NCBI RefSeq assembly: GCF_037042905.1
Contig: NC_087245.1
Span: 28,708,001 to 28,772,000 of the forward strand
Source: Lytechinus pictus
Lineage: Eukaryota
Length of the DNA stretch: 64,000 nt
Reading direction: 5' to 3'
Of this stretch, positions 19,648-57,952 are shown piece after piece. Positions within the stretch are counted from its first letter, which is position 1. Each line of letters opens with the position of its first letter. The notes below the pieces were generated by a model, which worked only from the letters and a program-made list of their open reading frames with translations, had not been told where the DNA came from and did not search any database. The translations under genes and the position numbers were made by a program.

Positions 19648-22600
19648 ATGGGTGCATTTGCGAGTCTGTTTAAAAACCTATTTGGGAAGAAGGAGATGAG
19701 GATATTGATGGTTGGTCTGGATGCTGCTGGTAAAACAACAATTCTATATAAACTCAAACTAGGTGAAATTGTCACAACCATTCCAACAATTGGTGAGTAC
19801 TGCCCATCGTAAAGCTTTGGCCAGACTTGGTTTGGTTTGATCCTAGGTCATGCCAGGAGGTCCCGCAACATTCTTGTGTTAAATCTTAATTAAGATGAAA
19901 AGCTTTCCCCGCAACATGATATTTTCCATCAAATTGCCTGCATGTTTTTGAGTTCATATTTGTGATGCCTGGGTATATGGTTATGAAGTTACGCATAAGT
20001 TTGTACACGCATAATGAAATGAACCATTTTTTGAAAATGTGTTTTTGTGGACAAATCCAATATATATTGAGTTTTGAGATGAAAATGTATAATTACCCTT
20101 GTTATTGTTTAGTAGATGCATGATCGTAGAAAAGCTGGTAAATATAAATTGGTCGAAAAATCGTTCGAAAAATCACAAGATATTGAATAAAAAAAATATA
20201 TTAGAATATGATTTAGAAGCCACAATCTATTGGAAACAGCACTTAGTTATTAAGAGTAACAACAACATCAAGTAAAAAAAAAAAAAACCTACATCTTTAT
20301 AAATAATTTGAGTTACTACTTTTAAAGGACAAGTCCACCCCAACATAAAGTTGATTTGAATAAGAAGAGAAAAATCCAACAAGCATAACACTGAAAATTT
20401 AATCAAAATCGGATGTAAAATAAGAAAGTAAAGTTTTGCTTAATTTCACAAAACAGTTATACGCACATCCTGGGTGGTATGCAAATGAGGAAACTGATGA
20501 CGTCATCCACTCACTATTTCTTTTGTATTTTATTACATGAAATATTCTAATTTTCTGCTCATTGTCAAGTGAAACAACGCTTAATTCTTCCCTGAACATG
20601 TGGAATTAGGCATTGTTTAATACTATATGCTTCAGTCAACTTTTTCCTTATTGTCAAATCTCCAAAAAATAAAATATTGTATAATTCAAACAATAAAAAA
20701 CAAAAGAAATAGTGAGTGATGGACATCATCGACCGACTCATTTGCATGACACTTAAATTGTGCATATCATTGTTTCGTGAAAAATAAGCGAAACCTTAAA
20801 ATGCCATTACTTTCTTATTTTACATCCGATTTTGATGAAATTTTCAGCGTTAGGCTAGAGTGATTTTTCTCTATTTATTCAAATCAACATTTTACTTGGG
20901 TGGAATTGACCTTTAATTTCACAGTGTACTAAGGCCCCCTGTCTTTCTATGCATCAAAAGCCCAGTCTATTTTGGGTTAGTATGTTTTTATGCATGAGGC
21001 ATATGTGGGCATTTGGGTAAATCAAACTAGTACAGTATGTATGTAGGTAGTTTTGACAAATTTATAAGTGAACTCATTGAATATCAATTGCTATGAAAAT
21101 CAGCATGCATGTTGTCTGTGATATGATCTCCAAGACTTTATATCATGATATTTTGCATGAAACAAAATATTATATTTAATAGTGCACTATTTTATGTTAA
21201 TACAGTGTATATATGGTACATTAAATCTGATGTTAGATATGAAGGGGCTACCCTTTTCTGTCTACCTGTCTGTCTGTCTGATTCATTCTATTACTTAGTG
21301 TCTCTATCCATTCCTCTCTTTCTGTCTCTTTCTCTCCTTGCACCGATAAGTGTATTCTGTCCAAGTTTCTAAAGTGGTACTGTATACTGACCTATTGTTT
21401 TGATTGAAATAGACTTTGAATGTTTATTATTGTTTCATTCAGGTTTCAATGTTGAGACTGTGGAGTACAAGAACATCAGCTTTACAGTGTGGGATGTCGG
21501 CGGTCAGGATAAGATCAGACCGTTATGGCGTCACTACTTCCAAAATACACAAGGTAACAAATATAATTTGATTTGCCCTGCATATTTTGCTGTATAGCCC
21601 ACAAAGTATACTTCCAGAAGCCTATGAAAGGACTTATCAGATATTTGAGAGGTTGTAGTTTTCTGAATTTGGGTGTCAGTTTGTTCTATGGTCATTGTTC
21701 AATATAGTCAAATTCTAGAGCTGTTTTGGGTATTTGTGTGTCATTGACTTGAAAATAGGATCTGGGTCATTGCTGTGTTGATTCCAATAAGAACTGCTAA
21801 TTTTCTATACGGCGCTTTTGTTATTAACTTATAACTTATAATTTTTTTATATACCAGTACTTTTAAAAGCCAATACATAATACATAAGCTTTATTTGTTC
21901 AGTTTTGATAACTGATTTGCTCTTTAATATTTACACCACTAAAGAAAAATTTGCGTGGGTTGGCACTACACTTAATTCTTCTATTTTTTTTCAGGTCTCA
22001 TATTTGTAATAGATAGCAATGACAGGGAAAGAATGATTGAAGCAAAGGAAGAACTCCATAGAATGCTGAATGAAGATGAACTACGAGATGCAGTCCTCTT
22101 AGTGTTTGCAAACAAACAGGTCAGTTCAAAATGATAATGCTACATTGCTAAAACCCCATTCCATTGAGAGCAAGATCCCTGAAAGACCACTGAAAGACCA
22201 CTGAAAGATCTCTGAGAGACCATGGATCTTGCTTGATCTTTCAGAATTCTTTCCATGGACTTTGCCTGGTCTTTCAATGATCTCTGCAAAATTCATGAGA
22301 GACTGTCGAAAGATCATGGAAAGACCAATGAGAACTTTGGATATTCATCGAAAGACCACTGAAAGACTGCTGAAAGACCATCAAAAGACCAATGTCCTGT
22401 AAGACCGCGTAAAGACTGTTTTGAACCGTTTCAAAAAGTTTTGGAGCTCATGGAGACCATGAAGACCAGTGAAAGATCCACCAGGAATAATAAAAGACCT
22501 CAGAGATCTTTGAAAGTTTGTTGGAAGACCTTTGAAAGATCAAGCAAGTTTCATGGTCTTTCAGAGGTCTTGCTCTCTGTGGAATGGGGGTTTTAATAGT

Positions 22601-24177
22601 CTTATTGGTCTCTCAGCCCTCTTCAAGGTCCTGATGTGATTTTGCTGGAAGTTTTGTTTTTTAGTCTTATATGTAGTTCTTTCAGGATTTTTCATTGCCA
22701 TTCCACAGAGACCATAAATTTCAGTGATCTTGGAGACTGCCGAAAGCCCATGCCAATATTCAGCATGTCTTTGATCTTCAGTGGTCTCTATTCTGTGGAT
22801 AGGGGGCATTTAATAATGTAATATGAATGATGTTCATTTTGCAAATATATACCATGTATGTCTGCTCCGGTATTTAGCAATATATTCTTGGTATAGCACT
22901 GAGGAAGGAAACTTGTTCATACAAAGCTGATGCGTGGTTGCACAGAGTATAGGCCTCCTTTGGTCTGTGAAGGCCAAAGTTTATTAATCCTAAATAAAAC
23001 CTGTATTTCTATATGCTACTGATAATTAAGAGTCACCAAACATTTCAGATTACATTCATTCCCAAACACGGTCACTTCTGTATTTCCCTCCTGATTTTTT
23101 TTTTCTCAGTTTAGCTGTCAAATGCAGTATCATAGCCTGGAATATTTCTTGGGTTTAAACTTTTGAAAATAGATCATTTTAGTGAACGGATCCATGGCAA
23201 TTGCTCCCGCAACAATAGCTCCTACTAAGAATGCACACGTTAAGCAAAAGACAACCCTGAATGTCATAACTTATATTAGTACTTACTTACTTACTGCCTC
23301 CTGGCATGTAGGGCAGCAACAAAAGCTCTCCACTCCGGTCTGTCTTATGCCAGTCTCTGCAGTGGTCCCCATGCAGGTCTGTCGGAGGTTAGACATTTCG
23401 CCCTCCACGGTCTGTCGCCAGGTTTTCTTGGGTCGACCTCGTTTTCTCCTTCCTTCGGGGGTCCAATGCAGTGCTGTCCTTGTAATGTCATCCGCTTCTT
23501 TTCGTAATACATGCCCGATCCATCTTCACCTCCTTTTCATAAGTATGCCTTCCATACTCTCTTGTTGGCATCTTTCATATATTCCTTCATTTGTTATTGT
23601 GTTAGGCCAGAATATACAAAGTATATGCCTTTAAATTTGGGTATGGAAGCCTGACAGTCTCTTGAGGTCATGTCTTGACATCCTCCAGCATTCTGAATTT
23701 AAAACTGTTGAAAGAACGCAGCTCTGGTATATTTTAAGCTTAGTCTTTGCTCTATATTGTTGCGACCGCCATACATTGCTAAGTATACTAAATGCAGTTT
23801 TGGCTTTGTTGAGTCGGCTTTTAATCACTTATATTAACTTAATCATAGTCCTCACATGATTCTGAACCAAAATCGCATCATAACCCTCACCCTCAACTTA
23901 TATCTTGAGAAAAATTAGTGAAGTAGCAAAGGTTGTAAGAGCAAATGCTGCGTTACTCAGTGAACTCAGACCACTATGTTTCAGATTGATAACATATATA
24001 TTTCACTTTCTCATTGTACAGGATTTGCCAAACGCAGCCAATGCATCTGAAATCACAGAAAACCTGGGCTTGAAGTCACTGCATAATCGGAAATGGTTCA
24101 TCCAGTCAACTTGCGCTACATCTGGAGATGGTCTCTATGAAGGTCTGGATTGGTTGTCCAGAGAATTGAAGAATTAA
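19648..24177 (+). CDS. ARF1: ADP-ribosylation factor, class I (ARF1-like) paralog A; join(19648..19792,21443..21553,21995..22119,24022..24177), 178 aa
   Basis: Spliced [181 protein letters not shown]. It has Gly2 (myristoylation) and the G1 GLDAAGKT, G3 DVGGQ, G4 NKQD and G5 CAT motifs. All introns are GT-AG and in phase; the 111- and 125-nt internal exons match vertebrate ARF1 structure. Confidence 0.96.
20326..20912. mobile_element. Kolobok-like MITE (AGGACAAGTCCACCCC family) in an intron of gene A
   Basis: Long TIRs with TTAA on both sides; related copies at 16540, 25310 and a split copy at ~50279-52599. Confidence 0.85.
22154..22806. mobile_element. TIR element with GAAAGACCA internal repeats
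   Basis: CCCCATTCCA..GAGAGCAAGA inverted at ~22555-22590; related terminus at 22806. Confidence 0.55.
23279..23826 (-). mobile_element. 5'-truncated RTE-clade LINE (3' end of ORF)
   Basis: Minus strand [21 protein letters not shown]...[13 protein letters not shown]..., then RWIGHVLRK...[20 protein letters not shown]; (TAAG)n tail; 10-bp TSD ACTTATATTA (23269-78, 23827-36). Confidence 0.9.
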
Positions 24178-57600: not shown

Positions 57601-57952
57601 GAGAGAAGGTTGTGTTGAGTTGGTGAGTGGAGTTGTATAGCAAAAGAGAAGACTCAACGTTTCAGGCGGGTGACTGTCCATCTTCAGGAGTGAACATCAG
57701 ACTTGACATTATACATTATGGAGAAATCAAGGGTCTGTATCTGAAGACTATTAATTTGTTTCCTTTTCCTGTTTATTACTTCTACAGGATCTACCAAACG
57801 CAGCCACCGTTGGAGATATCACTGACAAACTTGGCTTGAATGGTTTACATAGTCGACGATGGTACATCCAGAGCACATGCGCTACATCAGGTGATGGTCT
57901 CTATGAAGGTCTGGATTGGCTGTCTAATGAATTAAAAAACACCAAAAAATAA
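54683..57952 (+). CDS. ARF1: ARF1-like paralog C; join(54683..54827,56277..56387,56803..56927,57788..57952), 181 aa
   Basis: [20 protein letters not shown].../[132 protein letters not shown]. Same exon structure, intact. Confidence 0.96.
57116..57556. mobile_element. Harbinger-like MITE in the last intron of gene C
   Basis: TAA|GCCCCTATTCCACTAT...ATAGTGGAATGGCCCC|TTA. Confidence 0.65.

Follow-up and report, generated by a model that had tools for sequence, protein, structure and literature searches.

Three tandem class I ARF genes of Lytechinus pictus with a common switch core and a copy-specific patch from helix 4 to strand 6

Introduction

Following genome duplication, the class I Arf genes of vertebrates lie on different chromosomes. 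Their products ARF1, ARF2, and ARF3 have the same switch regions and differ near the N- and C-termini (PMC12350278). Seven residues distinguish ARF3 from ARF1, and ARF3 prefers the trans-Golgi network (PMC12350278), a precedent for the relocation of a class I Arf by a few terminal residues. Here, we describe three class I ARF genes, g1, g2, and g3, in a window of 64,000 nucleotides of the sea urchin Lytechinus pictus (contig NC_087245.1, positions 28,708,001 to 28,772,000, forward strand). As in the vertebrate set, the switch regions are the same and the termini differ. However, whereas the vertebrate copies are 97% identical, the sea-urchin copies are arranged in tandem, share 84–89% identity, and are most unlike between helix 4 and strand 6.

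A preliminary description of this locus held that class I ARFs are usually single-copy in invertebrates. This is not the case, as Arf1 is often multi-copy (SpuArf1a/b/c, the three of S. purpuratus; NveArf1a/b; AquArf1a/b), although the supplement of the same study lists several invertebrates with a single Arf1 (Vargova et al. 2021, PMC8358228). Like these sets, the sea-urchin array comprises multiple class I paralogues in one genome that are built around a core that does not vary. A short N-terminus like that of g1, g2, and g3 is also present in NveArf1a and in the two Amphimedon copies, whereas SpuArf1a/b/c have long N-termini and no clear one-to-one matches in Lytechinus (PMC8358228). The main text of that study does not speak of gene conversion, concerted evolution, isoforms, or alternative splicing, and its four mentions of 'tandem' concern other proteins.

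In the tandem ATP1A1 genes of Leptodactylus frogs, as proposed below for the array, non-allelic conversion spares copy-specific residues and nearby silent sites (10.1101/2020.08.04.234435). Toxin resistance and selection were shown there by multi-species DNA and protein engineering, whereas separate functions and selection are putative for the sea-urchin array. Within the literature covered, we found no relevant publication on this array or on modular Arf1 exons. Sea-urchin GTPase expansions were reportedly described by Beane et al. in 2006, and that work may already include an Arf expansion. Tandem class I Arf paralogues are a known kind of arrangement; the present analysis adds a mosaic that probably stems from conversion, and a surface that differs from copy to copy and lends itself to exon-swap tests.

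Results

Three intact ARF genes lie in tandem

A six-frame scan and rebuilt gene models revealed g1, g2, and g3 as three intact genes on the + strand, which extend from the ATG of g1 at 19648 to the end of the g3 stop codon at 57952 (Table 1). Each has four coding exons of 145, 111, 125, and 156–165 nt without stop or frameshift, and nine of the nine introns are GT-AG. The proteins comprise 178 (g1), 181 (g2), and 181 amino acids (g3), with 20 (g1-g2), 23 (g1-g3), and 29 (g2-g3) differences per 178 positions. The rebuilt models thus bear out the three same-strand, lesion-free ARF genes of like exon structure in the preliminary description. Its N-terminus one residue shorter than that of ARF1 was likewise found in alignments with solved structures, where query residue 3 aligns with chain residue 4. 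The first coding exon of human ARF1 has 148 nt, which is consistent with a one-codon difference from the 145 nt seen here. That the copies are 'diverged', as also claimed, is true of some gene parts, but not of the middle, which is near-identical in DNA. Introns differ in length and are unalignable between copies except near splice sites. Searched with 441 exon peptides, the window yielded neither a fourth ARF gene nor an isolated ARF exon (best outside match E 0.083).

The switch core is near-identical in DNA

In the three pairwise comparisons, 231/234, 227/234, and 228/234 bases (97–99%) were identical in codons 13–90, and 42/45, 42/45, and 45/45 in codons 158–172. The corresponding values for codons 128–157 were 63/90, 61/90, and 53/90 (59–70%), and in codons 1–12 the copies were alike at 26–29 of 36 bases. 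Silent differences at codons for the same residue numbered 3/74, 5/72, and 4/72 in codons 13–90 and 8/15, 7/18, and 7/13 in codons 128–157. A segment-free permutation test found the runs of identity to be longer than in shuffled data (p 0.0001, 0.0011, and 0.0006). Exact tracts between copies reach 101–113 bases, and one 34-nt tract shared by g1 and g2 spans the intron acceptor in front of the putative untranslated part of g1 (19604..19647).

As a control, we compared the same silent sites with 31 intronless or cDNA-like loci out of 80 metagenome ARF loci fetched. They differed at a fraction of 0.59–0.63 in all four segments, and in the core never at less than 0.45. Codon usage in the core is mixed, and since several codons are used per residue, the core is not codon-optimised. 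At the protein level, the changes of L. variegatus g1 that agree with another copy in an informative way are A5Q and E104D only. Duplicates of considerable age whose cores were copied recently would fit this mosaic best, and from the pattern of silent sites we infer interlocus gene conversion of the invariant parts, which we consider highly probable.

Each copy departs from the class I consensus in a patch of exon 4

Measured against the animal class I consensus, exon 4 is deviant at 10, 13, and 11 of 47 positions in g1, g2, and g3 (median of 75 other domains, 3), whereas the core deviates at 0, 0, and 2. Between the two Lytechinus species, exon 4 differs at 0, 0, and 1 residues, and eight further differences lie elsewhere in the three genes. 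Residues that distinguish one copy from the others and are fixed in both species number 18, 16, and 24; 16/18, 12/16, and 18/24 of them fall within residues 128–178. The patch runs from a helix at 135–142 to a strand at 152–155 in an alignment-based model of g2 (overall predicted local distance difference test, pLDDT, 76.8), which was used instead of a poor single-sequence fold (pLDDT 46.8).

Arf dimers are weak and depend on the membrane. In the tubular AP-1:Arf1 coat, R149 and H150 of ARF1 take part in Arf1-Arf1 dimers, H146 contacts AP-1 mu1, and residues 133–139 form another Arf1-Arf1 contact (Hooy et al. 2022, PMC9586487). A back-side contact of Arf1 with AP-1 is also mentioned, without residues, in PMC5482573 and PMC6627992, and was not seen in COPI (PMC5482573). 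Sea-urchin numbering is that of ARF1 minus one. Position 145 (ARF1 H146) is K/N/N in g1/g2/g3, while H occurs in 68/77 animal domains and K or N in 0/77; position 148 (ARF1 R149) is H/R/H, with R in 74/77. Several changes affect positions that are conserved in 68–76 of the 77 domains. In contrast, every copy retains the switch regions, the MxxE motif, and each of the G motifs.

Outside the patch, all three copies share M99, which occurs in 1/77 domains elsewhere. Tyr81 of g3 is fixed in both Lytechinus species and is also present in SpuArf1b and in Arf6 proteins of the Vargova supplement. Gly61 of g3 was found in L. pictus only and in 0/77 other class I domains.

The three proteins are class I ARFs

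All three proteins match the Pfam family PF00025 (Arf) with 265–270 bits (curated cut-off 22.3). The catalytic glutamine and the motifs G1 to G5 are intact and the same as in ARF1; in g2, A124S immediately precedes NKQD. Gly2 and Ser6 are present throughout, and the N-terminal helix is modelled with low confidence (pLDDT <50, residues 1–14). Among solved structures, g2 is nearest to ARF1 (339 bits), followed by ARF4 and ARF5 (317) and ARF6 (280). The preliminary description had called for a phylogeny. The copies do not fall into separate ARF classes: all are placed inside the class I group (support 98/79), apart from a class II-like pair (100/97; only two class II-like rows).

Single residues agree with this assignment. 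The residue after the CAT motif of G5 is Ser in all copies, and none begins with MGL, whereas Gln after CAT and an MGL start are found in 7/7 Arf4 sequences inspected in the supplement of Vargova et al. 2021 (PMC8358228). Glu175 is shared with class II, yet it also occurs in 18/77 class I domains. Arf1 and Arf4 are also told apart by their intron positions (Vargova et al. 2021, PMC8358228). The three introns of the sea-urchin genes lie at the same places as those of the class I loci L036 and L038. M109 and E112 in helix 3 make up the MxxE motif, a feature of Golgi Arfs (PMC12350278).

The array is older than the split of two Lytechinus species

Each protein is annotated in RefSeq with 100% identity (Table 1) under the automatic names ADP-ribosylation factor 1, 1-like, and 1-like 2. 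The L. variegatus counterparts (XP_041471613.1 and XP_041485285.1, the latter a fusion of g2 and g3) are 98.3% (g1), 100% (g2), and 96.7% (g3) identical, with 3, 0 (of 181), and 6 differing residues. All three proteins are encoded on one chromosome-sized contig of L. variegatus, with g2 and g3 in the same order as in L. pictus. The genes are real and annotated, and these one-to-one counterparts show that they predate the separation of L. pictus from L. variegatus. No further class I ARF or canonical ARF1 of L. pictus was present among the matches listed (best 120 per protein search, of thousands) or among the cluster members listed. A targeted protein search for further sea-urchin orthologues gave mostly plant ARFs among the matches listed.

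A quick tree search with 92 rows, from which truncated, broken, or duplicate halves were left out, placed the six Lytechinus rows on one branch with a support of 64; only 7/88 inner branches were well supported. In a tree of 39 hand-picked rows, the Lytechinus copies formed one branch inside class I (95/91), a soft value, since the free search missed better trees. Conversion would itself draw copies together in trees. When g2 was held with six short-helix basic-tail sequences, a group picked beforehand by eye from tail motifs, the likelihood exceeded that of the free tree, and this placement was not rejected (approximately unbiased, AU, test, p 0.524). In a tree of exon 4 only, g2 sits on a long branch and is separated from g1/g3 by the class II-like rows. 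The six sequences (P0231, P0242, P0148, P0093, and the second halves of P0005 and P0015) group with 93/91, and possibly represent an ancient subtype without a name in hydrozoans, a coral, a nemertean, a hemichordate, and a sea star. By eye, SpuArf1b shares M99, H107, and A133 with g1, and Y81 with g3.

The array is at least genus-wide, probably partly common to S. purpuratus, and possibly far older. Of the lineage-specific tandem expansion proposed earlier, the tandem duplication and the retention of differing copies stand, given the counterparts in a second species; the lineage-specific part may hold, given the single Lytechinus branch, but the AU test does not reject an older origin of g2.

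Double ARF models and probable tandem genes in other animals

Gene models with two ARF domains exist in 14 other animal species of six phyla, namely five corals, four bivalves, a sea hare, a brachiopod, a nemertean, a sea star, and a sponge. They are probably fusions of neighbouring genes and would point to tandem genes in those genomes, because curators split the sponge model (the Amphimedon fusion was divided into two genes in PMC8358228) and no in-frame splice path joins the Lytechinus units. Direct DNA evidence of a tandem pair comes from the metagenome contig L004, which carries the last exon of one ARF gene and, about 0.9 kb after the end of this exon, a second ARF gene. In this animal-type locus (L004:4401-9395), the downstream gene is a short-helix class I ARF without the middle intron, and the two last exons are not homogenised. 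No other animal-type tandem pair was found among the 80 metagenome loci; the pairs in L079 and L080 are of plant type.

The short N-terminal helix does not mark the lineage, because an N-terminus one residue shorter was found in 37/90 classified non-Lytechinus ARF domains, from sponge to teleost, in a set biased to query-like sequences. Teleost proteins named 'ARF 2a' (P0234, P0245, P0210, P0147, P0170, P0437) have the same one-residue-shorter N-terminus. In RefSeq, three ARF1 isoforms of Exaiptasia (P0400, P0394, P0396) differ only after residue 135, in the last exon, two of Bolinopsis (P0392, P0434) only in the first coding exon, and those of Amphiura (P0201, P0370, P0226) at the N-terminus and in exons 3–4. 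These could be duplicated alternative exons or mis-joined tandem genes; with either origin, the variation lies on the same two modules as in the sea-urchin copies.

Transcription units and other features of the window

Each unit starts at a splice acceptor, and for g1 this implies a putative upstream non-coding exon before the first coding exon. No own upstream first exon was located for g1, g2, or g3 in the window, and no promoter-like sequence is shared upstream of the three units (scores within the shuffled range). A CpG-rich, non-repeated stretch about 1 kb before g1 (18200-18700) is a candidate promoter or first exon, and nothing like it precedes g2 or g3. An in-frame stop lies six codons before each ATG, no GT donor occurs at the coding ends of g1 and g2, and every unit has a poly(A)-like signal within 250–320 nt. 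No in-frame splice path leads from one unit to the next, given the stop directly after the last codon and the upstream in-frame stop. A non-coding element of 100 nt is found behind g1 and g2 and was not found behind g3; perhaps it is a 3' untranslated exon or a regulatory site. The two supplementary files of a study of L. pictus larval infection (PMC11688612) contain no ARF entry, so an immune role is without support.

Table 1. Positions of the ARF gene parts and associated elements in the window
Feature	Position	Strand	Evidence and remarks
g1 putative 5' untranslated part of first coding exon	19604..19647	+	after pyrimidine tract and AG
g1 coding exon 1 (myristoylation glycine, amphipathic helix, P-loop, switch I start)	19648..19792	+	rebuilt model; XP_063955875.1, 100%
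g1 coding exon 2 (interswitch, switch II)	21443..21553	+	104-nt exact match with g2
g1 coding exon 3 (helix 3 with MxxE, NKQD)	21995..22119	+	rebuilt model
g1 coding exon 4 and stop	24022..24177	+	copy-specific patch 24037-24108 (codons 133-156); homogenised stretch 24112-24156
g1 non-coding element behind gene	24693..24792	+	75% over 101 nt to g2 element; pyrimidine tract and CAG
g2 putative 5' untranslated part of first coding exon	41402..41442	+	sequence
g2 coding exon 1	41443..41587	+	XP_063955885.1, 100%; also first half of L. variegatus XP_041485285.1
g2 coding exon 2	42737..42847	+	rebuilt model
g2 coding exon 3	43580..43704	+	rebuilt model
g2 coding exon 4 and stop	44378..44542	+	copy-specific patch 44393-44464; homogenised stretch 44468-44512
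g2 non-coding element behind gene	44629..44729	+	counterpart of 24693..24792
g3 putative 5' untranslated part of first coding exon	54634..54682	+	sequence
g3 coding exon 1	54683..54827	+	XP_054754542.2, 100%; exact matches of 109 nt (g1) and 113 nt (g2)
g3 coding exon 2	56277..56387	+	S61G and F81Y, the only residue changes of any copy in codons 13-90
g3 coding exon 3	56803..56927	+	rebuilt model
g3 coding exon 4 and stop	57788..57952	+	copy-specific patch 57803-57874; homogenised stretch 57878-57922

Between g1 and g2, a large non-coding foldback or inverted-repeat element occupies 28306-37725. Its arms hold 16-bp tandem repeats (28412-28599 and 37282-37357), and inside them lie three near-identical 1522-bp units (30129-34649; 97–99%) rich in a short palindromic motif. 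Two head-to-tail copies of 1269 bp with one mismatch and no long frame (13335-15874) represent either a very recent duplication or an assembly artefact. At 6143-8054, a TAC microsatellite of about 121 copies is followed by two arrays of 10- to 114-bp repeats in opposite orientation. No tRNA or Rfam match was detected in the window.

Discussion

The explanation that we favour, and regard as probable, is that g1, g2, and g3 are tandem paralogues of long standing that have one switch in common and differ from copy to copy in their back surfaces. The three Arf1 paralogues arose by tandem duplication before the split of L. pictus and L. variegatus, at a time so remote that introns and unprotected silent sites have since diverged. 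Judging from the intact motifs, each copy would be a normal, predicted-myristoylated GTP/GDP switch that should recruit COPI and adaptor protein (AP) coats at the Golgi. Short interlocus gene conversion would keep copying the P-loop, switch I, interswitch, switch II, and the G5 region between the genes, and would leave no lasting trace in the N-terminal helix or in the patch between helix 4 and strand 6. The simplest cause of the protected patch would be selection that removes tracts erasing copy-specific residues, an idea to which we give slightly more credit than doubt. As an outcome, the copies would present the same face to guanine nucleotide exchange factors, GTPase-activating proteins, and switch effectors, while the helices that insert into membranes and the back surfaces used in Arf-Arf and adaptor-lattice contacts would differ. 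By analogy to the human structures, they might favour different membranes, coats, or cell types, which we suggest only tentatively. Sub- or neo-functionalisation of the copies, as suggested earlier, appears plausible.

Several points weigh against this explanation. The segments compared (13–90, 128–157, etc.) were chosen after viewing the alignment, although the permutation test is independent of them, and the DNA compared between copies is that of L. pictus, with clustering by species as a prediction of conversion. In the L004 tandem pair, the G5 stretch is unhomogenised (7/14 silent differences), so conversion is not general in such pairs. The distance between the two congeneric species is uncalibrated by silent sites, and the pair may simply be close. 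In codons 133–156, the ratio of amino-acid to silent change (dN/dS) is 0.72, 0.26, and 0.55 with 16 silent sites each; the excess of amino-acid change (dN/dS >1) expected of neofunctionalised duplicates was not seen there. In S. purpuratus, the three Arf1 proteins are long at the N-terminus and carry different substitutions in this patch, a pattern that loose constraint would explain no less than specialisation. The structural contacts were taken from 9–12 angstrom maps of human proteins (PMC9586487), and E115 and R117 of the same Arf1 dimer are unchanged in all copies. Finally, at least half of the sequence words of the g1 last exon and flank were present in 8/21 listed runs, four of them at 0.93–0.96 (one study), and none of these is recorded as RNA; ten runs with 0.20–0.24 of the words are no evidence, and these values describe presence in contigs, and for g1 only.

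The copies may instead have been kept for amount or for their promoters, with interchangeable proteins and a patch that drifted under relaxed constraint, which we consider unlikely but worth taking seriously. Core conversion would then be neutral and self-reinforcing, since only near-identical stretches convert. The dN/dS values below 1 and the different patch substitutions of S. purpuratus suit this explanation, as do the other isolated fast-evolving class I domains (Ciona, some fish) and the slight phenotype seen when class I and II Arfs of mammals are knocked down singly (reviews including PMC12350278). However, g2 is furthest from consensus in exon 4, yet shows 0/181 differences between the species; exon 4 of the three genes has one interspecies difference and the remainder eight; and several changes fall on the strongly conserved positions. 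In a rather improbable alternative, the array is far older than sea urchins, with g2 derived from the ancient short-helix basic-tail subtype and conversion mimicking recent sisters. The grouping of the six sequences (93/91, and 91/76 on exon 4 alone), the last residues of g2, which are common to Porites and Hydractinia copies, the AU test, and the two-ARF models of other phyla point in this direction. Against it, the free trees unite the Lytechinus copies, M99 is in all three and hardly elsewhere, the test group had been picked by eye, and few branches of the large tree are well supported.

The acceptor at the start of each unit and the lack of an own first exon found for g2 or g3 would also fit cassettes of one transcription unit, in which a shared upstream non-coding exon or splicing across units mixes first and last exons. 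Such forms are treated by RefSeq as isoforms of one gene in Exaiptasia, Bolinopsis, and Amphiura, and fused models are on record for g1-g2 and for g2-g3. We nevertheless hold this to be improbable: every unit is complete, with its own stop and poly(A)-like signal; the stops before each ATG and the missing donors leave no in-frame path from unit to unit; current RefSeq gives three separate proteins; Vargova et al. split the equivalent Amphimedon fusion; and near-identical exons readily yield mis-joined models. It is very improbable that no conversion took place and that selection on RNA or DNA (splicing signals, structure, codon choice) held the silent sites of the core. The identical stretches do match exon cores and end near splice sites, but the same sites differ at 0.59 from the 31 other ARF genes and at 7/14 in the L004 pair, codon use is mixed, and the window has no Rfam match. 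Two other near-perfect tandem repeats in the window could hint at an assembly or polishing artefact; with introns that differ in length and sequence, and all three proteins on one contig of L. variegatus, we see next to no chance of this.

A three-gene Arf1 cluster by itself is ordinary. For annotation, the array offers an explanation of the many 'double ARF' models of 360 residues, which are probably neighbours fused into one, and short reads are liable to mis-assignment among g1, g2, and g3. Why cells keep several near-identical Arfs is an open question in membrane traffic, and the three genes offer a natural experiment in a sea urchin used in the laboratory, with the switch held identical in DNA and a helix 4 to strand 6 surface unlike in each copy. 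More speculatively, and with considerable doubt, animal class I Arf may be recurrently modular: an invariant core would be joined to a choice of N-terminal helices and of modules made up of helix 4, strand 6, and helix 5, by way of tandem genes homogenised by conversion, as proposed for sea urchins, or of duplicated first or last exons, as may be the case for the RefSeq isoforms of a ctenophore and a sea anemone. The cluster might date from early animals and have been reduced to one gene in flies and worms. If this holds, the variable back surface would give each form its own Arf-Arf or adaptor lattice, and with it coat or cell-type specificity, while the switch is left untouched.

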